A stretch of DNA of 64,000 bases from Desulfovibrio sp. (GTDB lineage: Bacteria; Bacillota; Dethiobacteria; DTU022; UBA8154). Below the pieces are notes generated by a model, which was not told the DNA's origin, made no database searches, and was given only the letters and a program-made list of their open reading frames with translations. The stretch's first letter is position 1, and each line of letters starts with the position of its first letter. The translations under genes and the position numbers were made by a program. Where the stretch lies: positions 3,734 to 67,733 of the forward strand of contig JAGVAS010000056.1 in assembly GCA_020060185.1 (NCBI GenBank), in the 5' to 3' direction. This document shows positions 15,168 to 45,449 of the stretch, piece by piece.

Positions 15168-15184
15168 ATTCCCACCTCTTTAAA

Positions 15185-16159
15185 TTATACCTCTATATTG
15201 ATGATCTTTTGAATAATGATTATACCTAGAAATTGCATAATTATAGCCAGGACCAGCATTATAATCCCCAGTGTATCCTGGACAAGGGTTAACATGTACT
15301 CCGGGTTCATAACCATCAAAAAGCCAGCTACGGCTATTGGCAGAAGGATAATAATGACTGCTGATAGCCTCCCCTGTGCTGTCAGTGTTTTAATCTCCCC
15401 TTTGATTCTCACCCTTTCCCGGACAGTGTGAGAAATATTATCTAGAATCTCGGCCAGATTGCCGCCCACCTGCTTTTGGATAAGCAATGCCGTGATAAAC
15501 AGGTTGAGGTCATCACTGTCGGTTCTTTCTTTAAGGTTCTGCAGTACTTCCTCCAGAGGTTTTCCCATGCGGTTCTCCCAGATCACCCGGGCAAATTCCT
15601 CTCCGATAGGCAGTCCCATTTCCCTGCTCACCACAGACATGGCCTGGGGAAAACTGTAACCGGCCCTGAGGCCGCTGGAGACAATTTGCAGCGCTTCGGG
15701 AAGCTGCTGTGTTAGGGTGTTTAACCTTTTTGCTTTTTTAAGATTTACGAACAGACCGGGAATTTTAAAGCCTACTATCCCTACCAGTAAAGCTATAAGC
15801 AGGTTTGCCGTCATTAAATAGGTTACACAAAACAAACCTGCACCACAGAAAATTGTCAACCCGATAAATTCTTCAGCGCGCATTAGAATATGGGCACGGA
15901 GAAGCTTCTGTTGGATAGCTTTTAGGTTGGAACGGCGTGAAAGCATTGCTCCCAGCATCCCCGAAAAGTGTAAAAACTCCCCCCCGAAGCCCTTCGCCCT
16001 GGCCGCATCAAACTGCTGCTGCAAGGCGCCGGGACCCATGGTGTGAATTTTTAACCTCTCCATTACGGCCAGGCGGGAAGCAAAAAGGAAATGGTATATG
16101 ACTATTGTAGAAAAAAGTATAGTGAGAAAGGCACCGCCTAAAACAATATAATAAAACAT
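15185..16159 (-). CDS. tadB: type II secretion system F-domain protein TadB
   Basis: 324 aa T2SSF-type membrane protein immediately downstream of cpaF. Confidence 0.7.
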   Translation of the reverse strand: MFYYIVLGGAFLTILFSTIVIYHFLFASRLAVMERLKIHTMGPGALQQQFDAARAKGFGGEFLHFSGMLGAMLSRRSNLKAIQQKLLRAHILMRAEEFIGLTIFCGAGLFCVTYLMTANLLIALLVGIVGFKIPGLFVNLKKAKRLNTLTQQLPEALQIVSSGLRAGYSFPQAMSVVSREMGLPIGEEFARVIWENRMGKPLEEVLQNLKERTDSDDLNLFITALLIQKQVGGNLAEILDNISHTVRERVRIKGEIKTLTAQGRLSAVIIILLPIAVAGFLMVMNPEYMLTLVQDTLGIIMLVLAIIMQFLGIIIIQKIINIEV

Positions 16160-16182
16160 TTAAGGCCTCCAATAGGTCGTTT

Positions 16183-17532: not shown

Positions 17533-17546
17533 TTTACCTCGCCTTT

Positions 17547-18752
17547 CTATTCCACAGCTTCAACAGCGTTTTCACTTTTTTCTATCACTTTTTCCTGGCT
17601 GCTTCCTGAAATTTTACGTGTCAAATCCAGAAAACTGCGGCTTATCTTTGCCCGGGGATAAAGAAGCACTACAGGTATCCCTTTATTCAATGAAGAGGAC
17701 ACCAGCTTGTGTTCTTCCGGTATAATCGCATAAAGATTATAATTTAAAGTCGTTTCTACATCCCTGGTTTTAATATCACTACGGGATTCTGCCCTGTTAA
17801 GCAGCAACTTTATCTTTTGCCTGGGATAATTTAAGGAATTCAGAGATACCATACAGGCTTTGATATTTCGAATAGCAGCCACATCCTGGGTGGTTACCAG
17901 CAAGAGCAAATCAGCTTCCTGGAAAGCAGAGTCAATGGCTTCATAAAATCTTGCCGGCATATCGACAACTACATAATCAAAAAAACTCTGCAGAACCTTG
18001 ATAATGATCTCGATATGCTCCGCATTGATAAATTCGGCCATCTGCGGCTGAGCGTTTGCAGCCAGGACCTTAATCCCGGAGCGGTGCGGGATCAGGTAGC
18101 TTTCCATTAAATCATGGTCCAGGTTGCGTATATCATTGACAACATCCGTAATGGTATAGCGGGGAATTATATTTAAAGCGAGTGCAGCATTACCAAAATC
18201 CAAATCCAGGTCGACAAGAACAACCTTCTCCCTGGTATGCTGTGCCAGGGAAACCGCCAGGTTAGTGGCAATAAAGGTCCTGCCCACCCCACCTTTTGTA
18301 CTAAAGACAGTAATAACCTGGCCCTTCTGGGACTTTTTCTTCAGGACAGAAGTTTTATCCCGGTGGATAACCTGCTTTTTTCTTTCCAGCTGGTAAGTAC
18401 GGTAGATGGAATCTACCAGTTTGGACGGAGAAAAGGGGTAAATCAGCATATCTTTGGCACCGGCAAAGATAGCTTTGCGCATCGTTTCTTCCCGTAAATC
18501 TTCTTCGATCATAATTATGGAGACCCAGGGGGAAGATCCGGTCACCTTTTCAGCCAGCTTGTAACCGTCTCCCGGAACATAGGCTCCAATAAGCATTACA
18601 TCCGGGATAGCCCTGTCCAGCATTTCCAGCGCTTCTTCCGCCGACCCCGCTTCTCCCGTCAAAGTAATATATTCTACATTGGAGAGGATATTAAGAACAG
18701 TTGACCTCTTTTCAGGATCATCTTCTACTATCAGAACCTTTATGTGTTCCAC
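17547..18752 (-). CDS. cpaE: CpaE/TadZ pilus-assembly ParA/MinD-like ATPase with N-terminal pseudo-receiver domain
   Basis: 401 aa; N-terminal REC-like fold (KVLIVEDD) lacking the phospho-Asp (DVMLIG); deviant Walker A VFSTKGGVGRT. Confidence 0.8.
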   Translation of the reverse strand: MEHIKVLIVEDDPEKRSTVLNILSNVEYITLTGEAGSAEEALEMLDRAIPDVMLIGAYVPGDGYKLAEKVTGSSPWVSIIMIEEDLREETMRKAIFAGAKDMLIYPFSPSKLVDSIYRTYQLERKKQVIHRDKTSVLKKKSQKGQVITVFSTKGGVGRTFIATNLAVSLAQHTREKVVLVDLDLDFGNAALALNIIPRYTITDVVNDIRNLDHDLMESYLIPHRSGIKVLAANAQPQMAEFINAEHIEIIIKVLQSFFDYVVVDMPARFYEAIDSAFQEADLLLLVTTQDVAAIRNIKACMVSLNSLNYPRQKIKLLLNRAESRSDIKTRDVETTLNYNLYAIIPEEHKLVSSSLNKGIPVVLLYPRAKISRSFLDLTRKISGSSQEKVIEKSENAVEAVE

Positions 18753-18756
18753 ATTT

Positions 18757-19482
18757 TCACCTCTCCCTGAAAGTTTCGAAGTTATCGGAGTTATAGTAAT
18801 CTAATTCAACTATTTCCTCATCCATAGGGGAGCGTAAGGTTAAATGAAAGGTACCCTTCAGATTTGCATACGCCAGTACTTCAGCCTGGGCCGGATTAAC
18901 ACCCAGTGTAACTGTACTTACAAGATGCCTTTCTTCATTATCTTGTTCTCTTGTAAACTCCCCGGTAGCCAGTACGAGTGCATTTTGAACTACTGTATAA
19001 ACAGTCATTACATCATTAATATCCGGATCGTTATAGGCAACCAGCACATCCACTTTATCACCAGGGGAAACATAACCGGAAACCCCGGGCACTTCACTTA
19101 CAGGGATAGAAATAGCCCGCAGCTTTTCCGGTACCCTGTAAGAAAGGCTGGCCCGTCTTTCTTCCGTAGCAACCCTGCTGGCTAGAACCTGCTCTCCTTT
19201 AACGATATCCGACCTGGAAATACCTCCCACTGCATCAGCCGCATTCCTTAAAGCTTCAGGATGTACAGCCTCCGAAGGAATAGATTCCGTAGTGAGCATC
19301 TCCGCTGTAATTCTGGTATGTCGAGGTATGGTGATTTTAGCTGTAATTACCTTAGTCTGGGAAACAGGAGTCAAAGTAAGTGTGTCGGGAGAAGATAAAT
19401 TCTTAATATATGAATTTAAGGCAATAACGGTTATAAGTCCCAAAAATACTGCTACTATTAAAAGACGTTTGTTGACTTTCAA
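18757..19482 (-). CDS. cpaB: Flp pilus assembly protein CpaB/RcpC (SAF domain plus C-terminal beta-clip)
   Basis: 241 aa; N-terminal TM; C-terminal ISIPVSEVPGVSGYVSPGDKVDVL...AQAEVLAYA motif. Confidence 0.75.
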   Translation of the reverse strand: MKVNKRLLIVAVFLGLITVIALNSYIKNLSSPDTLTLTPVSQTKVITAKITIPRHTRITAEMLTTESIPSEAVHPEALRNAADAVGGISRSDIVKGEQVLASRVATEERRASLSYRVPEKLRAISIPVSEVPGVSGYVSPGDKVDVLVAYNDPDINDVMTVYTVVQNALVLATGEFTREQDNEERHLVSTVTLGVNPAQAEVLAYANLKGTFHLTLRSPMDEEIVELDYYNSDNFETFRER

Positions 19483-19512
19483 TGATTAGTTACTCCTTTC
19501 AAATACATTACT

Positions 19513-20616
19513 TTATTTAATTAAGTGCACTCTCACAGCCCCCGAATTTATAATTCTGGGACAACCATATATAACTTCGATGATATCTCCTGATAGCACA
19601 TGTTGATTTCCTATTTCCTCATAATGGAGATTTTCTGCATATGCAAAAATATATTGACCATTTGAAATTACTTCTCTTCCAGAAAAAGTCTCCACAATAG
19701 ATGGCAGAACCAAAAGAATCCAACCTTTGTAACCCTGTCTTTCCAACCGTATTCCAAGCGGGGAGTTAGCATAATTTGGTGTTACAATAGCTGCAACCTG
19801 GCCGGGATCATTTTTTAGAACCCCGATGGAGCTGTATATAGGATTTTCGATGCCATTTAATAGCACTTGTGAGATATTACTTGCCGAACCGAAATCAGTT
19901 AGATCCAGCAACCCCCAGTTTCCGGATAAGTCAGATCTCCTCCATAAAGAAAAGTTGATTTTATCTTCTTTTTCAATAAGGCAGTCAAGGATATAATAAA
20001 AATGTTCTAATTCGTTCTTCCAATTCAAATCTTTAAAAACTCCATTATTTTTTACATTTATGCGAATGGCTGTTCCAGTACTCCCTGCATCTAACATTAA
20101 TTCAGTACTATCTTCGTGAGTATAAAAAATTTCTCCTACAGTACCACCATTTTTCATGTCCTCTATTTTATTCTCTATGTCCTGGTAGTTAAGAACATGA
20201 AAAGGCAATAAATCCTGTCCCACTATATCTGCTGATGCAGTTGCTTCAGCACTTACAATATAATCATCATTTGCAAACATTTTTCCAAGTAACCGGGGAT
20301 AATTGTCCCTTATTAATACCTTAACTTCCCGGTTATTATTTTGCTTGGTTGCAATTACTATCCCATCTGAAATATTGTGTTTATTTGCATAGGATAATGC
20401 AATTGCCTGAACATCACCGGCTGGCAACTCAAAAGCAGCTGCCAGCGCAGCAGCATCAGCTGCATTTTGTAAATTCCTTCTTTGAAAATAAAGATAGCCA
20501 ACATCTATAACCAGCGCTGTTAACCCAAGTAAAACAACCATAGAGGCTGCAACAATAATCAAGGCTGCACCTTTTTGATCATTTAAAAGTTTAAATATTT
20601 TTTTCACCATACTCAC
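19513..20616 (-). CDS. tadG: TadG-like pseudopilin / Tad_N-domain pilus assembly protein
   Basis: 367 aa; N-terminal AALIIVAASMVVLLGLTALVIDVGYLY...NAADAAALAAA typical of the TadE/G-like N-terminal domain. Confidence 0.6.
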   Translation of the reverse strand: MSMVKKIFKLLNDQKGAALIIVAASMVVLLGLTALVIDVGYLYFQRRNLQNAADAAALAAAFELPAGDVQAIALSYANKHNISDGIVIATKQNNNREVKVLIRDNYPRLLGKMFANDDYIVSAEATASADIVGQDLLPFHVLNYQDIENKIEDMKNGGTVGEIFYTHEDSTELMLDAGSTGTAIRINVKNNGVFKDLNWKNELEHFYYILDCLIEKEDKINFSLWRRSDLSGNWGLLDLTDFGSASNISQVLLNGIENPIYSSIGVLKNDPGQVAAIVTPNYANSPLGIRLERQGYKGWILLVLPSIVETFSGREVISNGQYIFAYAENLHYEEIGNQHVLSGDIIEVIYGCPRIINSGAVRVHLIK

Positions 20617-20638
20617 TTCCTAAAGGAAATACCTTAAA

Positions 20639-21412
20639 TTAAAAACTGCCTGGTTTATTAAAACCTTGATTAATAGGATTTCCATCCCACGTATAGCCTA
20701 ACTTATTTACATTTGTAATTACGATTATGTAATTGCCATCAGGAGCACCATGTATCTGATGAAAAAATCTGGCAACCTCTATAACCGCTATCCCCGATGA
20801 ATTCGTAGTTCCGGGAATTCCTCCGGCATACAGGGAACCATCTTGTTGATCTATTCTTATGTTTACATCTGCACCTTGGATTGGACGATCCAAAGTAATA
20901 GTCACGTTTAAATCATTAACAACTTTAGTGGGATTAATTGAACTGACACCTAAATATTCCGGCGCACCCGGTCCGCCTGATGCAAGTTGCCCTACTTCGA
21001 TACGCATCGATGCTACGGAGGATAGTGGGAAAGTATCCCCTATTATCCTGTTTAAAAACGGCACTACTATATCCACAGAGCCATTTACTGTCACCTTGGT
21101 TTCCTCCCCTACCACACGGTCTAAAGCATTGGCAGGTGTAATAACAATAGAGCTTTCACTAATGTTTACAAAACCAGTCGACGAAGCTGCATTTATAACT
21201 TTTGTTCTAACATTTTCATAAGTTTCTCCCAGAGCAGCCGCACGGACACCTTCTCTGGCAGCATGGGTCATGGAAACCTGGCCATTAAAGATTAAACCAA
21301 ATTGTATAATTCCAAAAAGTATTGGTGGAAGCACAAACACTAATAAAAGAGCGAACTCTACCAATGACTGTCCTTTTTCGTTTGTTTTAAAAAAGGAAAA
21401 GAAATTGAACAA
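20639..21412 (-). CDS. tadE: TadE-like pseudopilin
   Basis: 257 aa; N-terminal GQSLVEFALLLVFVLPPILFGIIQFG TadE signature; non-ATG (TTG) start in the track, which overlaps the cpaA 3' end by 55 nt, so the true start may lie further downstream. Confidence 0.65.
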   Translation of the reverse strand: MFNFFSFFKTNEKGQSLVEFALLLVFVLPPILFGIIQFGLIFNGQVSMTHAAREGVRAAALGETYENVRTKVINAASSTGFVNISESSIVITPANALDRVVGEETKVTVNGSVDIVVPFLNRIIGDTFPLSSVASMRIEVGQLASGGPGAPEYLGVSSINPTKVVNDLNVTITLDRPIQGADVNIRIDQQDGSLYAGGIPGTTNSSGIAVIEVARFFHQIHGAPDGNYIIVITNVNKLGYTWDGNPINQGFNKPGSF

Positions 21413-22035
21413 TATTTTTCACATCCGAATGTATAAAATACTGTTGATAATGGCAATATTTGTCCTCCCAGGTTACTTAAGACAATAAGTGTTCCAAGGA
21501 CTATGGCAACCCCATAAGGCAGAAAAAGCTTTTTTTCCTCTTGCTTTTTTTCACTGGGAGAAAAAAAGAGCGAAAGCCTGTTTAAAAAGGAAAATCCGAA
21601 TTTTAAGTAAAGGACATTTAATAAAGGTACAGCAACTATCGCTAAAATTTTTTTCAAAAAACTAAGCAGTTGACCATTAGCAATTAAAAAAACAATGGCT
21701 AGCCCTCCCCCACATAGTACGGTAAAAAGGGCGGCATGAAATACAAACTGTGCACCTTTCATTGCTCCAATGGCTCCCAGGAGTTTCACGTCTCCTCCTC
21801 CCATACCACCCATTACAAATGGTATTATGAAGAGGCCGATTCCTAAAAGAAGGCCGTAGGAGCTAAATAAAAACCCTTCAAACCTGCCCGTAACTGTATT
21901 TGAAAATAAACCCCAAAGCATGACTGGAAAGGTCAGGAAGTTGGGGATTTTTTTCTTAGTCAGATCAAAGTAGAGTGAGGAAAATAACAAAGAAAAAAGT
22001 ATATATTCGTTAAATTGTAATTCCACAATTAGCAC
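21358..22035 (-). CDS. cpaA: prepilin peptidase CpaA/TadV (A24 family)
   Basis: 225 aa polytopic; GGMGGGDVKLLGAIGAMKG catalytic-Asp region of A24 peptidases. Confidence 0.75.
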   Translation of the reverse strand: MLIVELQFNEYILFSLLFSSLYFDLTKKKIPNFLTFPVMLWGLFSNTVTGRFEGFLFSSYGLLLGIGLFIIPFVMGGMGGGDVKLLGAIGAMKGAQFVFHAALFTVLCGGGLAIVFLIANGQLLSFLKKILAIVAVPLLNVLYLKFGFSFLNRLSLFFSPSEKKQEEKKLFLPYGVAIVLGTLIVLSNLGGQILPLSTVFYTFGCEKYCSISFPFLKQTKKDSHW

Positions 22036-22217
22036 TCCAAAAATTTATTTAAGGAAAAATAGTTACCACATTATTAAAAAGATTCCCAACATGGACATAG
22101 CCAGAACCAAAAAGTTCATAAAAATAACCCTTTCTGACCCCTGAAAACATCGAGGTGTTTTTAAGGGAACCTGCTTCTTAAAAGAAACAGGCTCCCTTTT
22201 TTTTAAATAAGATGTTC

Positions 22218-22412
22218 TTATAAAGCATTAGTAATAGTTTGGAATACATTTCTAATTTGATCGCCTAATAATGTCAAAGCAACAATAACCACAACAGCAA
22301 TCAATACTAGAATAAGTGCATATTCCGCCAAGCCTTGTCCTTCTTCATCCTTAATAAATCTTAAAATCATATTTAACATTTTTATTTTACCTCCATTTAC
22401 TAGGAATTTCAA
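22218..22412 (-). CDS. flp: Flp/Fap family type IVb pilin
   Basis: 64 aa; GQGLAEYALILVLIAVVVIVAL contains the G/XXXXEY processing motif and hydrophobic helix of Flp pilins. Confidence 0.8.
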   Translation of the reverse strand: MKFLVNGGKIKMLNMILRFIKDEEGQGLAEYALILVLIAVVVIVALTLLGDQIRNVFQTITNAL

Positions 22413-22528
22413 TGAAAACGTGGAAAGAAAACCCTCTATAATAATACTTTTCCAACCGCACCCTTTTTCCCCTCATCAGACACCTCCCTAAAAATGGAAT
22501 TATGTTAGAGTGGAATTGCTGGTATGTG

Positions 22529-24631
22529 CTAATTTTTGTATACTACTTTAGTAGTATGAGAGTTGGGACATAAAGTTAAATGGAAGGATCCTTTCAGGTA
22601 GGCATAGGCCAATATTTCGGCCTGTTGGGGAGTAACGGCGAGGATTACCATGTCTCGCGGATTTTTTTCTTCATTTTCTTTTTTCCCACTGCCATCTTTG
22701 ATTGCCAGTATTAAGGCATTCTGAACAGTTGTAGAGGCAGCAGGAACCCTATTTAAGCTCTTTTCTTCATAAGTAATCAATACGTCCACCCTATCCCCCG
22801 GATTGATTAGCCCACAAAGCCCGGTTACCTTATTTACAGGAATGGAAATACCACGCATATTTTCCGGTATCCGGCTGGACAGTCCCTGCCGGTTTTTGCC
22901 TTTAGCTTCAGAAGAGAAAGCATGTGCAACTTTTATTTCTTCTGTTAAAACCCCTATTTCTTCTGTTATACCCTCTTCTACTTGCTCAGAACGCAGGGTG
23001 ACAGGTAGACCCTGTTCTACAACATGACTGGAATTATTTTCGACGATAACTTTTTCTGTATGATTTGTATTTTTAGTATTAACAGAGTCCTCCAGGTTTT
23101 GATAATCATTGTCATATTCATTTTCAGTAAACTCGTTTTCATCCTGCATGTAATTTGAGGCCGTAGGTTCTGGTTCCATAGAGTTTTCCTTATCTTCATT
23201 TGTATGTGTATCTGTATCAATTAAAGTTTGTAATTGATCGGGAGATGTTTCGCTATTCCGAATCCATTCCATAAATTCAGCGGCCACAATAGCCTCCCCG
23301 TGAGCCTTCAGTTTATCAAGGCACCCGGGAATTATCCCCGTAGCAACATGTTTCCCGATAACATTGCCGTTACCATCAACTTCTGAATGTTCAAAAACGA
23401 AGATATCCTGTAAAGTGATGTTATCCCCTTCCATCCCTACTACTTCGCTAATCCTGGTGATCCTGCGGCTTCCGTCACTGAAACGGGATTGTTGAATAAT
23501 TAACTCGATGGCAGAGCTGATCTGCTCCCTGATGGCACGTAAAGGCAGCTCCATACCAGCCATCAGGACCATGGTTTCCAGGCGAGCCAGGGCATCCCTG
23601 GGGTTATTGGCATGCAGAGTGGAAATAGAACCGTCATGGCCGGTATTCATCGCCTGCAGCATGTCCAGGGCTTCACCGCCCCTGACCTCCCCTACCACGA
23701 TACGGTCCGGGCGCATACGCAGGGAATTGATTACCAGCTCACGAATGGTAAACTGCCCCCTGCCCTCAATATTTGCAGGCCGGCTTTCCAGGGTAACGAC
23801 GTGATTCTGGCAAAGCTGCAGCTCAGCGGTATCTTCAATGGTAACGATTCTTTCTTTATCCGGGATGAAACTGGAAAGCACATTTAAGGTAGTGGTTTTT
23901 CCGCTGCCGGTCCCACCGGACACAATGATGTTGATCCGTGATCGCACACAGGACTTTAAGAACATGGCCATCTCCCTGGTCATGGTTCCCAATTTAATTA
24001 ATTCTTCTACAGTAAAGGGATCTTTGGAGAATTTCCGGATAGTTATGGAGGGTCCCTTAAGAGCCAGGGGCGGGATAATGGCATTAACCCGGGAACCATC
24101 AGGCAACCGGGCATCGACCGTTGGAGAACTTTCATCTATTCTTCTTCCCAAGGGAGTGATAATTCGGTTAATGGCATGCAGGACATGATCGTTATCCCTG
24201 AAGGTTATATCCGTCTTGGTAATTTTACCATCACGTTCTACAAAAACATTATCACAACCATTTACCATGATCTCCGTAACGGAAGGATCATTAAGCAGTG
24301 AGTTAATAGGCCCGTAGCCGAAAATCTCGTCCAAGACGTACTGGATCACCTTCTGCTTGTCGCCCTGGGAAAGGTGGCGGTTGCTCTCTTCAAGCAGCGC
24401 TAACAGGGTATCGTAGATCTGCTCCGTAAACTGCCTCTTTTGAAAGGCATCCAGTTTTTCCAGATCAATAGTATTATCTACACTGTCAATCACCCGGCGA
24501 AGGGTTTCGACGGCGATATCATCCAGTTCCTTTTTCTTATTTACACCCTGCTCCCTGGCAAGCAAATGAGGTCTTGCCCCGTTGATCTTTACAGCCTGTT
24601 TGGAAAACACCGCCACCCCACCTTTTTGCAT
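22529..24631 (-). CDS. fusion protein: CpaF/TadA secretion ATPase paralog + acidic linker + CpaB-type C-terminal (RcpC beta-clip) domain
   Basis: 700 aa. Residues about 1-450 are roughly 75% identical to CpaF (16183..17532), with IIVSGGTGSGKTTTLNVLSSFIP. Residues 450-580 are a D/E/N-rich low-complexity stretch. The C-terminus GISIPVNKVTGLCGLINPGDRVDVLITY...QQAEILAYAYLKGSFHLTL parallels the CpaB C-terminus. Confidence 0.75.
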   Translation of the reverse strand: MQKGGVAVFSKQAVKINGARPHLLAREQGVNKKKELDDIAVETLRRVIDSVDNTIDLEKLDAFQKRQFTEQIYDTLLALLEESNRHLSQGDKQKVIQYVLDEIFGYGPINSLLNDPSVTEIMVNGCDNVFVERDGKITKTDITFRDNDHVLHAINRIITPLGRRIDESSPTVDARLPDGSRVNAIIPPLALKGPSITIRKFSKDPFTVEELIKLGTMTREMAMFLKSCVRSRINIIVSGGTGSGKTTTLNVLSSFIPDKERIVTIEDTAELQLCQNHVVTLESRPANIEGRGQFTIRELVINSLRMRPDRIVVGEVRGGEALDMLQAMNTGHDGSISTLHANNPRDALARLETMVLMAGMELPLRAIREQISSAIELIIQQSRFSDGSRRITRISEVVGMEGDNITLQDIFVFEHSEVDGNGNVIGKHVATGIIPGCLDKLKAHGEAIVAAEFMEWIRNSETSPDQLQTLIDTDTHTNEDKENSMEPEPTASNYMQDENEFTENEYDNDYQNLEDSVNTKNTNHTEKVIVENNSSHVVEQGLPVTLRSEQVEEGITEEIGVLTEEIKVAHAFSSEAKGKNRQGLSSRIPENMRGISIPVNKVTGLCGLINPGDRVDVLITYEEKSLNRVPAASTTVQNALILAIKDGSGKKENEEKNPRDMVILAVTPQQAEILAYAYLKGSFHLTLCPNSHTTKVVYKN

Positions 24632-24664
24632 TACTCTAAAATAGATACCCTAAGCGAGGAATAA

Positions 24665-24700
24665 AAATAAAATCCCGGCCAGGCCGAGAAAAAGGACATT
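24665..24700 (-). terminator. intrinsic terminator (expression platform of riboswitch 2)
   Basis: Minus strand CUCGG-CCUGG-CCGGG hairpin followed by AUUUUAUUUUUAUU; lies between the aptamer and the ATG at 24631. Confidence 0.55.
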
Positions 24701-24721
24701 AAGGGTAGTGAAAAAATCAAA

Positions 24722-24845
24722 AGTCCTGTCTTCGGCAACCTGGCAATCATAGCTCATTTAGAGCCTTAGACCCATGGCTTTGCGTCCCATCCTTTTGGGT
24801 GGTTTGCCTTTATCGGTCAAGGAAGCTATTTCCTTACCTCAATCA
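24722..24845 (-). ncRNA. cyclic-di-GMP-I (GEMM) riboswitch aptamer, copy 2
   Basis: Minus strand GGCAAACCACCCAAAAGGAUGGGACGCAAAGCCAUGGGUCUAAGG...GCCAGGUUGCCGAAGACAGG matches the GEMM-I consensus (GGCAAACC..GAAAG..GGGACGCAAAGCC.CGGGUCU). Confidence 0.75.
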
Positions 24846-24860
24846 TATTCTTTTAATAAT

Positions 24861-24889
24861 ATTATACAAAAATTCAGACACCCCTACAA
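24861..24889 (-). promoter_or_regulatory. sigma-A-type promoter for riboswitch 2 / tad operon (TTGTAG-17-TGnTATAAT)
   Basis: Minus strand TTGTAG (24884-24889), 17 nt spacer, extended -10 TGTATAAT (24861-24868). Confidence 0.5.
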
Positions 24890-24918
24890 GCCTTATTTTA
24901 CAATTCTGTTACTTAAAC

Positions 24919-26139
24919 CTAAGAAACATTCCTGAGAAAGATCTGGTTAGACACCTCCAGCGAATTAAGGTAGAACTCTTTAACCTCCTTTTCCTCCAGC
25001 TCCAATTTGGCTGCCTTCCTGGAAAGCCTTTCCCAATCACCCGTTTCATAGGCTAAAATTAGCTCATAGATATCCCTGAACCTGCTTTTACCCCCCAGCA
25101 AGGCAGTTTTAATATCTTCAGAGATGGGCAGTTGCGCCAGGATATCACTTAAAGGCTGGTCCAGAAAAGCGTCCATCAGGGAAAACATCCCCATGAGAAA
25201 AAGATCGGAATTGCGGTTCTTCAGGCCGACCCTGGGGGCTATCAACTCGCAGAACTTGGCCCGGCAGATAGCCGTAATGATCAGCTCATCAGGTTTATTC
25301 TCACCGATGCTTTTGAGGGAAATCAAGGAAAGCCATTTGCTGATCTCTTTCTTGCCCAGCAAAACCAGTGCCTGCCGGATGGAGCGGATTTCGCTACGAA
25401 AACCAAAGGCCAGGGAATTAATAAATTTAAGCAGCTTGTAGGAAAGGGAGACATCCATTTTAATAAGCTTCTCCAGCCTGTCAAAATCTAGTTCCGGCTT
25501 GTTGATCTCCTGCAGTATTTTAAGGTAGGTAAGCTTGAAGCTGGGAATATCCCGGCCGGAAACGATATCTGGTTTACTGAAGAAATATCCCTGAAAATAG
25601 GAATAGCCCATTTCCACAGCCTGGACAAAATCCTCCCTGGTCTCCACTTTCTCCGCCAGAAAAAGAGCTTTATGCGGCTCGATTCTCTGCACTACGGCCC
25701 TTCTTTGTTCTACAGGCGTGGTTAGAAAGTCAACCTTAATGATATCCACAAGGTCGAGGAGGGGCTTAAAGATATCGTCATAAAGAAAATCGTCCAGGGC
25801 CAGGAGGTAACCCAGTTCCTTTAACTTCCGGCAGGCAGCCAGCATCTTCTCGTCCGGCTCGATATCCTGTAAAATCTCTACCACGATAAGATCGTTGGGG
25901 AGAAGAGTAGCAACATCATTTTCCAGCAAATTTCTGGTGAAGTTGATAAAAGCCTTTTTCCTCCTAGTAAGTGTCTCCAAGCCAATGAGAAGAAAGCTGT
26001 TGGTAATAACTTCCGAGGAGGCCTGGTCACCGTTCAGGCTGGAATAGAACTTATTAGCCCCGGAACGGTATAACAGCTCGTAGGCGTAAACTTCCTGCTG
26101 CTTGTTAAAGATCGGTTGCCTGGCCACATAGATTTCCAT
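24919..26139 (-). CDS. EAL domain + HDOD domain protein (c-di-GMP phosphodiesterase-type signalling protein)
   Basis: 406 aa; EAL-domain motifs ARQPIF...YELLYR, IKVD, AEKVET, FQGYFFSKP; C-terminal HDOD-like helical region. Confidence 0.7.
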   Translation of the reverse strand: MEIYVARQPIFNKQQEVYAYELLYRSGANKFYSSLNGDQASSEVITNSFLLIGLETLTRRKKAFINFTRNLLENDVATLLPNDLIVVEILQDIEPDEKMLAACRKLKELGYLLALDDFLYDDIFKPLLDLVDIIKVDFLTTPVEQRRAVVQRIEPHKALFLAEKVETREDFVQAVEMGYSYFQGYFFSKPDIVSGRDIPSFKLTYLKILQEINKPELDFDRLEKLIKMDVSLSYKLLKFINSLAFGFRSEIRSIRQALVLLGKKEISKWLSLISLKSIGENKPDELIITAICRAKFCELIAPRVGLKNRNSDLFLMGMFSLMDAFLDQPLSDILAQLPISEDIKTALLGGKSRFRDIYELILAYETGDWERLSRKAAKLELEEKEVKEFYLNSLEVSNQIFLRNVS

Positions 26140-26353
26140 AGCCTGCCTCCATTTCCTTTCCTGATCTTTCAGCCCTTATCTGCTTTTCTTTAAACTCTTA
26201 AGATTCTCCCCGGGTAACGGCCAGCTGCCCTCCCTGGTAGCGAACGCGCATGGACAGGTCCTGGTAGTTCTGGGCCAGGTGGCTGGTCCGGGGCAGGGAG
26301 GCAAAGTAGTTAAATTACGAATGATTGAACTCTCCGGCAAATAGTTACTTTCT

Positions 26354-26452
26354 TTACCGGGGAACATTTCTTAAAAAGAACAATAAGATAAAAATGACGA
26401 TAGCGGCAATTAAAAGTAATTTTTCCGCTTGCTTTAGTGATTTGTCGCTCAT
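26354..26452 (-). CDS. small hydrophobic peptide ORF (32 aa) immediately after the riboswitch-1 terminator
   Basis: AGGAGGG 6 nt upstream of ATG; MSDKSLKQAEKLLLIAAIVIFILLFFLRNVPR is a single TM helix; hypothetical. Confidence 0.3.
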   Translation of the reverse strand: MSDKSLKQAEKLLLIAAIVIFILLFFLRNVPR

Positions 26453-26480
26453 GCTTGTCCCTCCTGCGAGGGACCGACAA

Positions 26481-26510
26481 ACCGAAAAATCCCCGGCCAG
26501 GCCGGGGATC
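26481..26510 (-). terminator. intrinsic terminator (expression platform of riboswitch 1)
   Basis: Minus strand CCCCGG-CCUGG-CCGGGG 6-bp GC stem followed by AUUUUUC. Confidence 0.65.
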
Positions 26511-26540
26511 AGGGCTCAAAAAATATCAATAAATACAAAA

Positions 26541-26668
26541 CCCCTGTCTTCGGCAGCCTGGCGATCCTGGTTCATAAGAACTTTAGACCCATAGCTTTGC
26601 GCCCCACCCTTTCGGATGGTTTGCCTTTGTCGGTCAAGAAGTTACTCCTTGCTTCTTTATAATACTTT
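26541..26668 (-). ncRNA. cyclic-di-GMP-I (GEMM) riboswitch aptamer, copy 1
   Basis: Minus strand GGCAAACCAUCCGAAAGGGUGGGGCGCAAAGCUAUGGGUCUAAAG...GCCAGGCUGCCGAAGACAGGGG; about 85-90% identical to copy 2 including the expression platform. Confidence 0.75.
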
Positions 26669-26675
26669 TAAAATT

Positions 26676-26704
26676 ATTATACCAAAGTTTAGTTTTTTCT
26701 GCAA
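26676..26704 (-). promoter_or_regulatory. sigma-A-type promoter for riboswitch 1 (TTGCAG-17-TGgTATAAT)
   Basis: Minus strand TTGCAG (26699-26704), 17 nt spacer, TATAAT (26676-26681) with upstream TG. Confidence 0.5.
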
Positions 26705-26824: not shown

Positions 26825-27809
26825 ATGCCTCATTCCTTCCAGCAGATCGCGAAAAAGTATGGCAGGATTGCTGGTATTAAGCGCAATGTTTCCCCAACAC
26901 GGAAGCATGTGCAGGTTATGCCAGAAAGTGCCGTCATTGGCGATACCAGGTTTTCTTCACGCACAAATCGGAGTTTTTTTGAGGTATACTGTAACGGGGC
27001 CTGGGTTCCCCTTATTGTAAAAGGGGTAAATATTGCACCGCCCTGCCGGGAAGATACTTCACCCAGTTTCCCATGAGCAGGGAAGTATATTACGGCTGGC
27101 TGGAGCAGGCTGCCGAACTAAATGTCAACACTATACGTCTCTACAGCTCCTTGATCCTCTCTTCTACCAGGTTTTTCAGGAATATAACCGCTCGGTAAAA
27201 CCTGCAAAGAGGTTATGGCTCCTGCAGGAGATCTGGAAAAAACTAGAAGGGTATGCAGGGGGTATAATTTTCGAGCTAATGGACGAATGGACAAAAAAAA
27301 CCTGGATTACCGTACCGTATATGGTACCCTTCGAGCGAAACGCCTACTGGCACAACGCTCTCTGCCCGGAACAGAATTATGGCTTGTTAGCCATGGAATC
27401 AGCAAAAGTACCCTTTTTTGAGACAGGCCCCTTCTATCTTCAGGATAGCAGTCCTGAGAATACGACGGCAAATGCCGGGTTATCAGGAAAAGAGCAGAAA
27501 GTAGTGGAATTAAGAAGGCTTTGGGTGGACCACAATGAAACTTTTCTTTACCTCGGGCTGGAGCTGTTCACAGGCGGAATAGCAGGCACGGCCGGCGGTA
27601 AAGCTATTAGCGGGTCCTTTCTGCCGCCAGGCACCGGCCTTTTAATTGGGCTGGATACCATTGGTCCTGAGCGAGGCACAAGGCGCCTGCCCCTTGAAAA
27701 GGAATATTCTCCCCACGGCCTGGAATATGTTATGCTTTTCCGGTTTATCAAGAGATCCGCAACCCTCTTCCCAGGGGGCATTTTTCCTTTGGAAGCCTGC
27801 ACAACATGA
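26825..27809 (+). pseudogene. degraded copy of the GH-A family lipoprotein glycoside hydrolase (paralog of 38642..41059): internal deletion plus frameshift
   Basis: Two overlapping + ORFs match the intact paralog (FFEVY..GAWVPLIVKGVNI; LLDPLFYQVFQEYNRS...LWLLQEIW; GGIIFELMDEWTKKTWIT...) but lack the central roughly 270 aa carrying the NEP acid/base and EFG nucleophile motifs. Confidence 0.6.
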
Positions 27810-28521
27810 TGCTGTCACGCACCTTGGCCATAATTTTGAGCTTGCTGGGGCTCTTCTTGCAGTCGTAATACACCACCATAGGGACCTCGCTTATTTTGCT
27901 GCAAAGCGTCGCGAGTTTCAACAAAAGCTCAACAGTTGCCGAAAAAGTCCTGGAGATAAGCAAAGGGTCATCCACTTTGTTACAGGCGTTTTTGATAAGC
28001 TCTGCCCGGTAAGCACGAAAATTAACGGCGTAATCGGTTACACCGGCAAGGGGGAAAACCAGGCGGTAATATTTTCTTGCCCCAAGGCTTAACAGGCGGC
28101 GAAAAAGGGGGACCCCTACCTGCCCCCCGCCTTTTACAAAGCGGGAGGCGAGTGCTATTTCTGCGCCTTCCAGGACCGCTCTTACCAGCCTGCCGATGAT
28201 CTCGCCGGGATGGGTGGCATCGGCATCCATGGTTACAATGAAGGTAGAATTCATTCTTACGGCTTCGTAAAAACCTGTCAAGATAGCCTGTCCCAGGCCC
28301 TTGTTTTCAGTATGAGACAGTACTTTAACCCTGGAATCACATTTTGCCCACTCCATAACTTTCTGAAGAGTTGCATCCCTGCTCCCGTCATTAATGATAA
28401 TTATGCGGTAATCGCATCCTTTAGGCAGTGATATGCCGCGCTCAAACATGCTGCGCAGTGCCGGAACAGACAGCTCCTCGTTATACATGGGTAAAATGAT
28501 GGCAACAAGTCTTTCTGACAA
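27748..28521 (-). CDS. GT2 polyprenyl-phosphate glycosyltransferase (DPM1/ArnC/GtrB-like), copy A
   Basis: 257 aa; AIILPMYNEE...IIIINDGSRD...VTMDADATHP GT-A DXD-type motifs; about 85% identical to 44655..45437. Confidence 0.8.
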   Translation of the reverse strand: MSERLVAIILPMYNEELSVPALRSMFERGISLPKGCDYRIIIINDGSRDATLQKVMEWAKCDSRVKVLSHTENKGLGQAILTGFYEAVRMNSTFIVTMDADATHPGEIIGRLVRAVLEGAEIALASRFVKGGGQVGVPLFRRLLSLGARKYYRLVFPLAGVTDYAVNFRAYRAELIKNACNKVDDPLLISRTFSATVELLLKLATLCSKISEVPMVVYYDCKKSPSKLKIMAKVRDSIMLCRLPKEKCPLGRGLRIS

Positions 28522-28536
28522 CTTCTTTCACCTCCC

Positions 28537-28914
28537 CTACCGGTGTAAAAAAAACACGCCTGCCAAGATCAGAGCAAGCCCTGCAACCTTGGACAATGTA
28601 ATATTTTCTTTAAAAAGCACCATCGAGAAAGTAAAAACAAGAATATAAGAAAGGCCGGCGCTCGGATAGGCCCTGCTGAGCTCCATGCCGCTAATAACCT
28701 TGATCCACAGGACCATGCTGGCAACAAAACAAAAGACCCCGAATAGCACCCACCCATTCGTGAATATCTCTAAAACTGAATAAGGCAGAGCCGTCCACTC
28801 CAGACTAAAATCCCCAAGCCTCCCCGCAGTATACTTTAACAGGATCTGCCCGCACGACCCCCCCAAAATAGAAAAAAGCATTAATGACAAGTCGCTTTTC
28901 AACCCATTTTCCAC
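28537..28914 (-). CDS. 4-TM EamA/SMR-like small membrane protein (ArnE/ArnF-type putative polyprenyl-P-sugar flippase), copy A
   Basis: 125 aa, four hydrophobic helices, GQILLKYTA motif; paralog of 44221..44586. Confidence 0.55.
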   Translation of the reverse strand: MENGLKSDLSLMLFSILGGSCGQILLKYTAGRLGDFSLEWTALPYSVLEIFTNGWVLFGVFCFVASMVLWIKVISGMELSRAYPSAGLSYILVFTFSMVLFKENITLSKVAGLALILAGVFFLHR

Positions 28915-30287
28915 CTCTGCTTCTTTTTAGTTTTCCCAGGAGAAAAAAACATAGTTTTCAGCGAAATGTGATAGGATCTTACCATCTCCTTAAGCTGGAT
29001 GACAGGGTTTTCCACCCTCCAGCTTTGAGGTTCCGTTAAAACCAGTATTATACCGGCTAATCTGAACCAGTACACGAGAAACCTGAAGAAAGGCAGGAAA
29101 AACAATATCCACCAGATTTTTTTCAGACCTTCCCGGTAAACCTCCGGAATAGCCCTGTAGTAGAAGAGCAGGCTGACGGCATCCAGGATAATATAACAGA
29201 AGAGGAGCACGGCCAATGAGAAGAAAACTGTCTGCAGGGCATAACCTATAAAATAGAGAAAAAAGATTAAAAATGTCCAGGAGAGGCGGGAAAGAGCCAG
29301 GGTATGGTCGGAGACAAACATACGGCCTAGATAATCCCACACTTTTATAGCTATACCCTTGCTCGCCGCCGAGTGAATGGCTATCGTTTCTATTTCCCCC
29401 CTCTGCCAGCGTGCCCTTTGTGAATACAGGCTTGCCAGGGAGCGGACCGGTTCAACGTAAGCGACGGCGTCCAGAACGCACCCCACACGGTACTTTTTAT
29501 TCTTAAAGGTCTTTTTAATTTGAAAGGTCAGGTCGGTATCTTCGGAAACAGTGCGCTCCTGGTACATGAAAGATTGCATGAGTACATCCCGCCGGAATGC
29601 AGAAAAGGCGCCGGAAAGGGTAAACAAAATGTTTTTTATGTTTTGATAACGCCGGCCTATATTAAAAGCGATCATATATTCTATGACTTCACAGAAGTTT
29701 ATAATATCCATGAAAGAAGAGCCTTTCCCCAGCTCCTTATCAACCCTGATAAACCCTGTAGCAGCAGCCAGCTTGCTATCTCCTTCAAAAGTCTGGACAA
29801 CCTTCAAGAGTGCGTCCTTATCCAGCCAGGTATCGGCGTCCACGTTTACAATATAAGCGCCGTGGCCTGAATAAATGCCGGCATTCAATGCTATTGACTT
29901 GCTGGCCCTGTCCAGAGACTTCCAGGCAACCAACAACTCGGGATGAGCGATTTGAAAGCGCTGGAAAACATCAAAGCTGTTGTCCCGGCTGCCGTTGTTA
30001 ACACAAATAACCTCTATTTTCTCCCGGGGATAGCTCTGCATATATATTGATTTCAGGCACTTGTAGAGGGTTTTTTCAGAATTGTAAACAGGAACGATAA
30101 CGGTTATATACGGTTGGTATTCCAGGGTGACCGGGTTTAAAAGTTGTTTTTCTTTCTTTGAGTGAAAATAAAGCCCCCAAAAGCAGTTTACGGCCGCAGC
30201 TACATCCACCAGGAGCGGAGCGAGCAGCCAGATACCCCAGTTAAGAATAAGGCGCAAAGAGTTTTCCCACAAGATCTCAGCGAACAT
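28899..30287 (-). CDS. processive GT2 beta-glycan synthase (D,D,D,QxxRW family; IcaA/PgaC/cellulose-synthase-like), copy A
   Basis: 462 aa; ITVIVPVYNSE, NVDADT, SEDTD, QRARWQRGEIE (QxxRW) with N- and C-terminal TM helices; about 80% identical to 45450..46850. Confidence 0.8.
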   Translation of the reverse strand: MFAEILWENSLRLILNWGIWLLAPLLVDVAAAVNCFWGLYFHSKKEKQLLNPVTLEYQPYITVIVPVYNSEKTLYKCLKSIYMQSYPREKIEVICVNNGSRDNSFDVFQRFQIAHPELLVAWKSLDRASKSIALNAGIYSGHGAYIVNVDADTWLDKDALLKVVQTFEGDSKLAAATGFIRVDKELGKGSSFMDIINFCEVIEYMIAFNIGRRYQNIKNILFTLSGAFSAFRRDVLMQSFMYQERTVSEDTDLTFQIKKTFKNKKYRVGCVLDAVAYVEPVRSLASLYSQRARWQRGEIETIAIHSAASKGIAIKVWDYLGRMFVSDHTLALSRLSWTFLIFFLYFIGYALQTVFFSLAVLLFCYIILDAVSLLFYYRAIPEVYREGLKKIWWILFFLPFFRFLVYWFRLAGIILVLTEPQSWRVENPVIQLKEMVRSYHISLKTMFFSPGKTKKKQRWKMG

Positions 30288-31493
30288 TTTCTACATTCTC
30301 CCTAACTTTTAGAAGCGTGGGCTGTGTTAAAACATACCAGTACAGCAAAATAATAAAGACGAAAAAGAAAAGCCGCCCGATGAGGGTATGGGCCACAAAG
30401 TTAAAGTTCCTGCCGCCGCTGTAAATAATGGCTATTACTATCATCATGCGCAGCATGTTAAAAAAGAGCAGGGCAATGATTCCCGCCAGAGAATAAAGAA
30501 TTTTCTTGATAAAACCGTACGCGGGGAAAAAGAAGAGCAACCCCAAAAAGACAGCGATTTCTAAGATAGCAGAGCTTTCTATATCTATATCAATGTAGTC
30601 CAGCTGTTGTCCATTTTTATAAATACCAAAATAGTCCCTGGCGCTTTATCAAAAACATAGGTTGTAATATCCACGTATTGCAATAAATGGTGCAGGACTA
30701 GGCCGGTCCAGTACTCAATGCGGTACTCGAGAAACGAACCCCGGAAAACCATGATGAAAAGGAATGTAAAACCTACCGCGCTCCAGATATAGTAAAAAAG
30801 CCAGATGCGGTGACGGTAGAGCACAACCGACCCCAAAAGCCAGAGCATAGCAAAAACCGTTATCTTTCCTCTGTCCCTTACCATAACAGGAAACGGCTTC
30901 CATTGAATATCTCCTTCTGAGGGCAGGCGGTCGCCTTTAACAGCAGCGCTGGAAAGGTAAAACCTGATGTATTGAGCAGGGTAAATGTGGAGGTCGGCCA
31001 TGGGAATACTAAATTCAAAGCAGCTGCCGCCGCTTATAGACCCTTCTCCCCAGTCCCCCTCGTAGGTAGAAAGCAGCTTTCCCTGTGACGAGTACAGCTC
31101 TACAAGCACTTCCCCTGTATCATGACCCGGCTTGTAAAGCACTTTTGCAAACTTATCAATGCCGTCATCATAGCTGCCGTTATCGTTAATGTCAAAAGAA
31201 AGCCTGCATACAAAACTGCTCCCTGTCTTAACCGGCTCAAACAGCTCTATCATAAAATACAGGTTTCTTTCGTTCTCTTTAGTCCCCCAGGACAGGGATT
31301 TAAGTTTCCTGCCGATCGAATCGTTATCTTTATAATCGGACAGGTAGGAAGCGCGCCCTTTCCAGTCGTCAAATTGCCCGTCCAGCCCAAATTTCTGCAT
31401 AAACCATGACCCGGGAGGCCACAATAGTATGACGGCCGCGCATAATACGGCGATGAAAAAATGAAACAGGCGCATATTATATCCCAGCTTCAC
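30277..31493 (-). pseudogene. frameshifted paralog of the 404 aa synthase-partner membrane protein (split into 302 aa + 89 aa ORFs)
   Basis: Versus the intact copy 46834..48048, copy A reads ..SWTTLI* where copy B reads ..SWTTIDIDIESSGILEIGVF..; a 1-nt deletion in the ATAGA(C/T)ATAGATAT run shifts the frame, and the C-terminal TM part continues in the +1 frame. Confidence 0.6.
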
Positions 31494-44130: not shown

Positions 44131-44220
44131 ATACAGTGCAGCAACAATACCAATAAAATACCAATAAAGTGTTAGTAAGCGTTTAAAGGCGGTTTCGGTA
44201 AAAATTCTTCCGTGATGACG

Positions 44221-45437: not shown

Positions 45438-45449
45438 CTCATTGACAAG

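Follow-up and report, generated by a model that had tools for sequence, protein, structure and literature searches.

The riboswitch, phosphodiesterase and pilus locus

We analysed a 64-kb stretch of DNA (hereafter the window: contig JAGVAS010000056.1, positions 3,734 to 67,733, of the assembly GCA_020060185.1, deposited as Desulfovibrio sp. and placed by GTDB in the Dethiobacteria of the Bacillota) that carries two predicted riboswitches of the GEMM-I type (class I) for the second messenger cyclic di-guanosine monophosphate (c-di-GMP), lying on either side of a gene for an EAL-HDOD protein and ahead of the genes for a Tad pilus. The strand was left unstated in a preliminary description of this DNA; all the elements are on the minus strand. 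Read in the order of transcription, they are a predicted promoter (P_A), aptamer A, an intrinsic terminator (T_A), the 32-codon open reading frame (ORF) of a gene remnant, the EAL-HDOD gene, a second predicted promoter (P_B), aptamer B, a second terminator (T_B), a gene for a CpaF-RcpC fusion, flp and the remaining tad genes (Table 1). Copy B is located 100 nt past the EAL-HDOD stop codon. The riboswitches had been described as tandem; they are instead two separate units, 1.7 kb apart, with a terminator, the gene remnant, a gene of 406 codons and a second predicted promoter between them. Gene identities in the window come from Pfam, with NCBIfam in addition for the CpaF-RcpC fusion, and both agree with the earlier placement of copy B before a CpaF-CpaB fusion, flp and the rest of the tad genes.

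Table 1. Features of the locus in the order of transcription. MFE, minimum-free-energy structure; R2, custom covariance model; L001, a related locus (see text)
Feature	Positions	Strand	Basis
Predicted sigma-70-type promoter P_A	26676-26704	-	TTGCAG 26704-26699, 17-nt spacer, TATAAT 26681-26676; TGG extended -10 (TGGTATAAT)
Leader hairpin P0-A (CAAGGAG-UAA-CUUCUUG), directly 5' of aptamer A	26635-26651	-	Every MFE prediction
Aptamer copy A, GEMM-I	26548-26634	-	RF03167, E = 6.6e-16; R2 96.9 bits
Proposed anti-terminator strand of copy A: P2 3' strand and aptamer tail (AGGCUGCCGAAGACAGGGG)	26541-26560	-	MFE before the 3' arm is made
Intrinsic terminator T_A	26483-26510	-	Hairpin 26510-26488: 10-bp stem (7 G-C pairs), 3-nt loop; U5 run
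Long-range complement UUUGUCGGUC	26472-26481	-	Fully complementary to GACCGACAAA at the 5' edge of aptamer A (26626-26635); MFE
Shine-Dalgarno-sequestering hairpin GUCCCUC-GCAG-GAGGGAC	26457-26474	-	7 bp, hides GGAGGG of the first ORF after copy A; sequence and MFE
32-codon ORF, N-terminal membrane-anchor remnant of a transglutaminase-like gene	26354-26452	-	tblastn, 76% identical to the L001 protein at its true N-terminus (MNDKSVKQAEKLILIATIIIFVLLFFLK)
C-terminal remnant of the transglutaminase-like gene	26204-26314	-	tblastn, 76% identity, E = 3e-14, residues 442-478 of the L001 ORF (482 residues as listed)
EAL-HDOD protein, 406 aa, predicted c-di-GMP phosphodiesterase, YuxH/PdeH type	24919-26139	-	Pfam HDOD 74.3 bits (cut-off 22.9), EAL 44.4 bits (cut-off 31.3)
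Predicted promoter P_B	24861-24889	-	TTGTAG, 17-nt spacer, TATAAT; begins 30 nt past the EAL-HDOD stop codon
Leader hairpin P0-B (AAGGAA-AUAGC-UUCCUU)	24819-24835	-	MFE
Aptamer copy B, GEMM-I	24731-24818	-	RF01051, E = 1.3e-15; R2 100.2 bits
Anti-terminator strand of copy B: P2 3' strand GCCAGGUUG and tail GCCGAAGACAGGAC	24723-24744	-	Full-leader MFE
Intrinsic terminator T_B	24662-24689	-	Hairpin 24689-24673: 7-bp stem (5 G-C pairs), 3-nt loop; tail UUUUAUUUUU
CpaF/TadA-type ATPase fused to a C-terminal RcpC/CpaB domain	22529-24610	-	Pfam T2SSE 235 bits, RcpC 86 bits; NCBIfam TadA-family, pilus_cpaB
flp	22218-22412	-	Pfam
A24 prepilin peptidase	21358-22035	-	Pfam
TadE	20639-21412	-	Pfam
TadG-like	19513-20616	-	Pfam
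CpaB	18757-19482	-	Pfam
REC-TadZ-like ATPase	17547-18752	-	Pfam
Second CpaF	16183-17532	-	Pfam
TadB	15185-16159	-	Pfam
TadC	14238-15167	-	Pfam
VWA protein	11671-14226	-	Pfam

Two class-I c-di-GMP aptamers

A scan of the whole window against Rfam at gathering thresholds, repeated on the sub-region, returned exactly two matches, both on the minus strand and both in the c-di-GMP-I clan (CL00126). Copy B matches RF01051 with 86.1 bits (gathering score 35) and copy A matches the clan member RF03167 with 74.8 bits (gathering score 59), both far above threshold, so that the two GEMM-I aptamers seen in the preliminary description are borne out. Copy A probably also exceeds the RF01051 threshold, its own score being masked by clan competition, because two overlapping gathering-level clan matches were suppressed across the two aptamers. 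Each aptamer is 87-88 nt long, not roughly 120 nt as first thought, and the earlier figure of 85-90% identity between the copies holds for the 67-nt conserved core (88%) but not for the full aptamer (81%) or the whole promoter-to-terminator unit (73%).

For comparison, 125 loci encoding EAL-HDOD proteins were sampled, 80 by a profile scan with one genome per species and 45 by a close-relative scan of metagenome contigs, and supplemented by exact-protein look-ups. These loci, cited below by L numbers, were scanned for GEMM-I with Rfam and with R2, a covariance model trained on 13 copies with canonical structure, which retrieves 18 copies in all, in the window and in nine related loci. In an alignment of these 18 copies, which was fitted to the model and hence leans toward the structure, 98% of the cells are paired and 10 of the 22 pairs show compensatory changes, a level reached by none of 500 shuffles; slid-alignment controls gave 23-50% paired cells. 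According to the Rfam alignments, the three ligand contacts G20, A47 and C92 are kept in both copies of the window, with AAAG-GC ... GC-AAAG ... UGCC-G at matching model positions (Vc2 numbering, checked against Bc1 (G11/A38/C81) and Vc1; PMC11218506, PMC4744006). Judged by sequence, the related copies are under selection for the GEMM-I fold, and both elements of the window are bona fide class-I c-di-GMP aptamers with predicted binding of the ligand.

The RF03167 label of copy A calls for a closer look. This family is the c-di-GMP-I-GGC variant, a name that we take to refer to the motif of its consensus. That consensus (GACGCGAAG) has G47, whereas copy A (GGCGCAAAG) keeps A47 and shows a cmscan mismatch at that column, and membership in the variant was rejected. 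RF03167 also outcompetes RF01051 on the relatives' B copies that carry the canonical GACGCAAAG; the label thus appears to follow the long P2 tips and outer P1 pairs rather than the binding site, and the Rfam "GGC variant" call on copy A should not be accepted at face value. A further candidate, the c-AMP-GMP subtype (GEMM-Ib), requires an A at position 20 (PMC9481103) and was set aside for both copies, which have G20.

Some positions depart from the canonical class-I aptamer. In copy A a G replaces the highly conserved A at Vc2 position 43; in the leader alignment this position varies among the A copies, L086 and L124 having A. Docking of a GNRA tetraloop with a receptor in the second hairpin is a feature of about half of GEMM RNAs. 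The loop of copy A is a GAAA tetraloop, and the 3' half of its receptor is CAGGA in place of the expected UAUGA. In copy B the receptor (UCUAAG/CUAUGA) is present, and the tetraloop is AAAA (24787-24790, minus strand) where all seven B orthologues have GAAA; this AAAA loop occurs only in the present genome, and the A copy of L082 similarly has UAAA.

The predicted phosphodiesterase gene and the gene remnant before it

The EAL-HDOD protein joins an EAL domain to an HDOD ('modified HD-GYP') domain, which is presumably the same architecture as in COG3434 and in Bacillus subtilis PdeH (YuxH); one source likewise gives the protein a COG3434-type name. The family alignment shows conservation of the catalytic residues E21 (in ELL instead of EAL), R25, N66, E88, D116, D117, K135, E166 and Q183, and the protein is predicted to act as a phosphodiesterase on c-di-GMP. 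Among solved structures its match is weak (Lmo0131, E = 1.6e-4), and no close named relative was found among solved structures or in NCBIfam. B. subtilis has PdeH itself as its only active c-di-GMP phosphodiesterase (PMC5422440, PMC11357230).

In the preliminary description copy A stood before a 32-codon hydrophobic ORF and the EAL-HDOD gene. The layout is right, but tblastn shows the ORF to be what is left of the N-terminal membrane anchor of a transglutaminase-like gene rather than a gene in its own right. Of this gene, 30 N-terminal and about 37 C-terminal codons survive in the same frame with stop codons between them, about 338 codons are missing, and 215 nt of non-coding sequence separate the ORF from the EAL-HDOD gene. 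The nine related loci that extend far enough (L001, L002, L003, L082, L083, L084, L086, L087 and L124) all have an intact transglutaminase-like gene, and copy A has this gene as its conserved first target in each of the relatives examined. The EAL-HDOD start lies 409 nt past the 3' end of aptamer A in the window against 1313-1390 nt in the relatives, in which the transglutaminase-like and EAL-HDOD coding regions either abut (L083) or lie 22-87 nt apart. About 1 kb has thus been lost from the transglutaminase-like gene in this genome only, and as a result of the deletion the phosphodiesterase gene is the only intact gene under copy A here. The window shows a riboswitch module under remodelling, with the phosphodiesterase left as the sole intact gene of switch A.

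Promoters, terminators and other leader elements

The motif TTGYAG-N17-TATAAT occurs exactly twice in the 64 kb, once before each aptamer, where shuffled sequences lead one to expect 0.02 occurrences. The promoters had been given as TTG(C/T)AG-17-TGnTATAAT; the motif is indeed present at both copies and nowhere else in the window, but the TGn extension is found in copy A only, copy B having TTGTATAAT. Both -10 boxes are perfect and each -35 box agrees with TTGACA at three of six positions, which is why a generic promoter scan missed P_A and P_B. In the leader comparison P_B has no recognisable conservation among the relatives, and in L083 only 33 nt separate the EAL-HDOD stop codon from aptamer B; copy B may therefore act in the relatives chiefly as an internal attenuator. 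In the relatives, most A and B copies are preceded by a counterpart of the hairpins P0-A and P0-B (AAGGA...UCCUU).

The GC-rich hairpin with a U-tract previously ascribed to each copy is present at both (T_A and T_B). Neither terminator overlaps its aptamer: T_A begins 37 nt and T_B 41 nt past it. No terminator was predicted between 26354 and 24889, the interval from the EAL-HDOD stop codon to copy B included, so that transcripts escaping T_A would run through the phosphodiesterase gene into riboswitch B.

Leaders of the A type have two further elements. The hairpin that would sequester the Shine-Dalgarno (SD) sequence is conserved in the relatives. The long-range complement UUUGUCGGUC sits beyond the point of termination and overlaps this SD hairpin; the two complementary segments are kept in all seven A-type leaders, with a C-to-U change in L124 that still allows a G-U pair and without any compensatory change. 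The A-type leader of L086 (2689-2760) naturally lacks a terminator: the linker 3' strand and the terminator 5' arm are lost, and the SD hairpin, the long-range complement, UUUCGG and the terminator 3' arm are still there.

Conservation and rarity of the arrangement

The relatives of the EAL-HDOD protein at 79-86% identity belong to metagenome-assembled genomes (MAGs) of Bacillota and Dethiobacteria, and the order of riboswitch A, transglutaminase-like gene, EAL-HDOD gene, riboswitch B and tad genes recurs in relatives with EAL-HDOD proteins at least 74% identical. Both riboswitches are present in L001, L082 (L081 shares the arrangement up to riboswitch B), L084 (of which L085 is a duplicate), L086 and L087. 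Riboswitch B is found in L083 and L002, the contigs of which stop short of the A position, and riboswitch A in L124, the contig of which stops short of the B position. In L003 (EAL-HDOD 74% identical) the contig stops before the A position and riboswitch B is absent, with just 86 nt between the EAL-HDOD gene and that for the CpaF fusion. The closest species-representative genome, L001, has an EAL-HDOD protein 82% identical to that of the window and a GEMM-I element 1.3 kb upstream of its gene, with the transglutaminase-like gene in between.

At 66% identity or less the loci have neither the synteny nor the riboswitches, with the sole exception of L006, a distant Bacillota MAG (EAL-HDOD 60% identical, no synteny) in which a GEMM-I element with G43 (242-326) and a terminator stand directly upstream of the EAL-HDOD gene, and which looks like an independent instance of GEMM-I on such a gene. 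In total, GEMM-I is carried by 3 of the 80 species-level loci and 3 of the 45 metagenome loci, and an Rfam recheck of 12 loci that were negative with R2 found no GEMM-I. Outside the clade a GEMM-I element beside an EAL-HDOD gene is therefore rare, in line with the earlier remark that the arrangement with an EAL gene is unusual, and within the clade the layout is kept.

The A-type copies are 88-97% identical in the core among themselves, as against 88% between copies A and B of the window, so that the duplication predates these genomes; by this measure A and B are old paralogues rather than products of a recent duplication. Additional GEMM-I elements occur in two of the related loci. L083 has a third one (4716-4803) between the CpaF-RcpC fusion gene and flp, where the window has 116 nt and no aptamer. 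The one in L001 (387-476) is more divergent; it stands 2.8 kb ahead of riboswitch A, upstream of genes for a LuxR-type response regulator and a HisKA_3 histidine kinase, and brings the number of GEMM-I units within 6 kb to three.

Switching logic

Terminator probabilities were computed for 13 related leaders having a terminator, from folds in which the aptamer helices were enforced and the junction and tail blocked. With the aptamer enforced, the terminator forms with a probability of 1.0 in all 13 leaders. For copy B of the window the corresponding value is at least 0.999, as against 0.005-0.007 for the free leader: when unconstrained, GCCAGGUUG of the P2 3' strand pairs with the terminator segment CGGCCUGGC, and GAAGA with UUUUC, in the MFE of the full leader. 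Switching would cost 8-10 kcal/mol, which falls within the reported binding energy of class-I aptamers. The B leaders of L001 (terminator probability 0.23) and L083 (0.77) lean the same way. The pairing GCCAGGC / GCCUGGC, between the P2 3' strand and the apex of the terminator, is the main anti-terminator in copy B of the window and in four B orthologues; it is not universal, and the A leader of L001 is without it. In copy A, before the 3' arm of the terminator is transcribed, AGGCUG and the tail engage 7 of the 10 nucleotides of the 5' arm in the MFE, and at this stage of transcription the 5' arm pairs with 3' nucleotides of the aptamer in 11 of the 13 leaders. The computed barrier to refolding into the terminator is about 9.6 kcal/mol for both copies of the window. 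The third riboswitch of L083 has the tail UGCCGGUUUA, a perfect 10-nt complement of the terminator loop and 3' arm UAAACCGGCA, and on this model the closest relative has, in the same operon, a switch of unambiguous OFF design.

Other switching devices were considered. An extended P1 (YCCUG / CAGGR) can be drawn in most leaders, L124 possibly with a compensatory CAGU/GCUG, and is kept as a possibility only. For an ON design, with a terminator overlapping P2, or for a three-element anti-anti-terminator, no segment was found that would block the terminator while the aptamer is folded. Since the terminator is compatible with the folded aptamer and no blocking element is present (the intervening segment is C-rich, like the 5' arm), OFF logic is favoured.

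Our preferred reading, to which we would give a probability of roughly 60%, is that the locus contains two separate class-I switches, both OFF switches acting through an intrinsic terminator, by which c-di-GMP represses its own phosphodiesterase and gates the tad genes. In silico this reading is firm for copy B and only kinetic for copy A. A precedent is found in Clostridioides difficile, all seven functional class-I switches of which are OFF terminators (PMC6366702). The analysis shows the identity of the aptamers, the gene content, the conserved layout, the deletion and a terminator compatible with the aptamer; from these we infer the sign of regulation together with ligand binding, promoter use, phosphodiesterase activity and the behaviour of the feedback.

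The ancestral unit of copy A coded for a membrane-anchored transglutaminase-like protein and, after it, the PdeH-type EAL-HDOD protein; on the OFF reading copy B would gate the tad/flp operon. When c-di-GMP is bound, the aptamer would retain the P2 3' strand and the GCCG tail (C92 and P1), the GC hairpin would form and transcription would stop; when it is not, the terminator 5' arm would be taken up by the P2 3' strand and tail, and the polymerase would read through. Transcripts started at P_A would pass two c-di-GMP checkpoints before reaching the pilus genes, and Tad pili would be made at low c-di-GMP. The SD-sequestering hairpin of the A-type leaders and the 10-nt long-range complement may add a translational layer of the same sign. 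It follows from OFF logic that c-di-GMP would repress its own degradation, a double-negative and hence positive feedback that would make the decision sharper or latch it. The sign of the loop, which the preliminary description had left open as feed-forward or feedback, would thus be positive rather than homeostatic.

Several points weigh against this reading. At equilibrium without ligand the terminator of copy A already forms with a probability of 0.995, and it is likewise the default in most relatives; in these models the regulation of copy A would have to be kinetic, or else copy A may terminate nearly constitutively. The count of 11 of 13 leaders with arm-aptamer pairing exceeds only modestly the 6.3 of 13 expected with shuffled arms of the same composition, and it comes from leaders that are related and not independent; the duplex energies of the extended P1 are no better than those with shuffled tails. 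The AAAA loop of copy B, and the degenerate receptor and G43 of copy A, may lower the affinities for the ligand. On the side of the enzyme, the EAL match covers profile positions 94-236 only, and the second Glu of ExxE is Gln, as it is in 12 of the 36 aligned family sequences. Moreover, the usual rule is that c-di-GMP promotes adhesion, to which pili made at low c-di-GMP run counter. Finally, the behaviour of class-I switches can go against models of this kind: Bc2 is a class-I ON switch (PMC6366702), and in Bc1 of Bacillus thuringiensis c-di-GMP unfolds a non-overlapping terminator and yet the gene is unresponsive (PMC11218506).

Part of this evidence would suit two ON switches, by which c-di-GMP would promote read-through and induce both the Tad pili and the phosphodiesterase, the same wiring then giving homeostatic negative feedback or a pulse generator. 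The adhesion rule would be respected, and a terminator that is the default equilibrium structure in most leaders is what one expects of a switch that needs turning on. Precedents are the pilA1 switch of C. difficile, which is ON (PMC6366702), and the class-I switches Bc2 (PMC6366702) and Bc1 with its T1 terminator (PMC11218506). We nevertheless consider ON logic unlikely: the spacer of 37-41 nt is C-rich and holds nothing that would block the terminator with the aptamer folded (the probability of 1.0 in all 13 leaders), the competition between P2 3' strand and terminator 5' arm that marks the classic ON layout (PMC1950547) is missing, and copy B of the window defaults to the anti-terminator when unconstrained.

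Somewhat less probable again is that copy A is a relic, a near-constitutive attenuator or inert, with the EAL-HDOD protein made at a low fixed level or from another start, so that only copy B works and there is no loop. This would account for the reduction of the transglutaminase-like gene to two fragments, the value of 0.995 in the absence of ligand and the CAGGA receptor; Bc1 offers a precedent of a conserved class-I switch locked OFF (PMC11218506), and the loss of the terminator 5' arm in the A leader of L086 indicates that the leader tolerates damage. Against it, the core of copy A is 94-97% identical to orthologues with an intact gene, and its three ligand contacts, promoter, terminator, SD hairpin and long-range complement are all kept; as the same leader heads an operon including the EAL-HDOD gene in the relatives, control of the phosphodiesterase by A is ancestral and no by-product of the deletion. 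That copy A senses another ligand, the locus then integrating two signals, was suggested by the better fit of RF03167 and by G43. We hold this to be very improbable in view of the retained A47, of G20, which is at odds with the c-AMP-GMP subtype (PMC9481103), of the preference of RF03167 for canonical B copies as well, and of a G43 that is not fixed among the A copies.

If the OFF sign is correct, RNA closes a positive feedback on the messenger itself, a compact route to all-or-none piliation. We can go further only tentatively, and on balance doubt it: the module could be an RNA-only bistable latch, conserved in an uncultured Dethiobacteria-like clade of Bacillota, that alternates between a state of low c-di-GMP, high phosphodiesterase and pili and a state of high c-di-GMP with neither, with two serial checkpoints flanking the ORF of the enzyme. 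With such a latch, riboswitches would provide positive feedback on a second messenger in place of the usual homeostasis of a metabolite.

Relation to known systems

Both RNAs are ordinary members of a well-known riboswitch class, and the type of their expression platform and the categories of their targets are known as well. What is mildly unusual is that the path under riboswitch control includes a phosphodiesterase gene, that a second switch, on pilus genes, follows it directly, and that a small uncultured clade of Bacillota keeps this arrangement. c-di-GMP riboswitches are usually output devices that rarely touch c-di-GMP metabolism (PMC6366702), and a riboswitch-controlled unit that includes a phosphodiesterase gene, is conserved across several genomes and adjoins a second switch on an adhesion or motility organelle is of interest on this account.

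The nearest counterparts are in C. difficile, where Cd1 (Cdi-1-3, upstream of flgB) and six other class-I switches likewise combine GEMM-I with an intrinsic terminator in a Bacillota 5' leader (PMC6366702). Cd1, like copy B, controls a long operon for a surface appendage, and c-di-GMP causes termination in it (PMC6366702); it differs in that the appendage is the flagellum and not the Tad pilus, that no phosphodiesterase gene belongs to the unit, and that its OFF sign is experimental where that of the window is predicted. Cdi-2-4, upstream of pilA1, resembles the window as a terminator-bearing c-di-GMP riboswitch that gates pilus genes in a Gram-positive bacterium (PMC6366702), but is a class II ON switch for type IVa-like rather than Tad/Flp pili.

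Repeated GEMM-I units in series on one transcript are familiar from tandem c-di-GMP-I riboswitches such as Bc3-5 of B. thuringiensis; 347 doublets and 12 triplets have been catalogued, and serial checkpoints are expected to steepen the response (PMC4759541, PMC9481103). True tandems share one 5' untranslated region, whereas the units of the window are 1.7 kb apart with the phosphodiesterase gene between them and a predicted promoter proper to copy B. Series of riboswitches separated by ORFs have also been described (PMC9481103): the seven-riboswitch series of Desulfobacca acetoxidans, with clusters of c-di-GMP-I, AdoCbl and c-AMP-GMP riboswitches, mixes ligand classes as logic gates, and no c-di-GMP-degrading enzyme is reported between its units. 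Lists of GEMM-associated families include transglutaminase-like genes (yebA/COG1305), cpaA and GGDEF or HD-GYP genes (PMC1950547, PMC12452182). They cover transglutaminase-like, Tad and c-di-GMP signalling genes as the window has them, but treat the associations separately and do not list EAL-HDOD; the literature searched held no description of their combination in one transcription path, and a search for GEMM together with Flp pili gave no match.

B. subtilis PdeH (YuxH), which is like the window protein in its EAL plus HDOD architecture (the two being compared by architecture alone), differs in its control, pdeH being governed by the protein Spo0A and not by a riboswitch.

The Tad genes and the flanking regions

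The full Tad/Flp set lies within 14238-24631 on the minus strand: pilin, peptidase, TadE/TadG, CpaB/RcpC, TadZ/CpaE-like, CpaF/TadA, TadB and TadC. No secretin was found in the tad locus by the Pfam and NCBIfam scans, as expected for a monoderm. An alignment with seven orthologous leaders places the likely start of the fusion gene at the GTG at 24610, behind AAAGGUGGGG, the open frame extending to the ATG at 24631. The CpaF-RcpC fusion (693-922 aa) also heads the tad operon in L001, L002, L082 and L083; a separate CpaB and a second CpaF are encoded further down the same operon. The TadZ/CpaE-like ATPase (17547-18752) has an N-terminal receiver domain (Response_reg, 53.5 bits).

In L081, which is a 3.3-Mb assembly record, a cyclic di-AMP (ydaO-type) riboswitch (1749-1882) lies a few kb upstream of the A riboswitch, and the flanks downstream of riboswitch B differ from those of L082. 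Three genes, two for histidine kinases and one of the REC-HD_5 type, directly precede riboswitch A in L082 and L084; the same trio is at 53239-58848 in the window, about 26.5 kb away. The intervening DNA (26704-53239) contains two similar clusters (27748-33184 and 42412-51506), each with a PTPS_related membrane protein and two family 2 glycosyltransferases (GT2), as well as a PilZ protein (34177-34695) and a PIN protein, and may be an inserted or duplicated exopolysaccharide island. Farther out in this neighbourhood rich in c-di-GMP genes, 60874-63414 (minus strand) encodes an odd fusion of 846 aa, in which SelA (seryl-tRNA selenium transferase) is joined to PAS, GGDEF and HD_5 (HD-GYP-like) domains.

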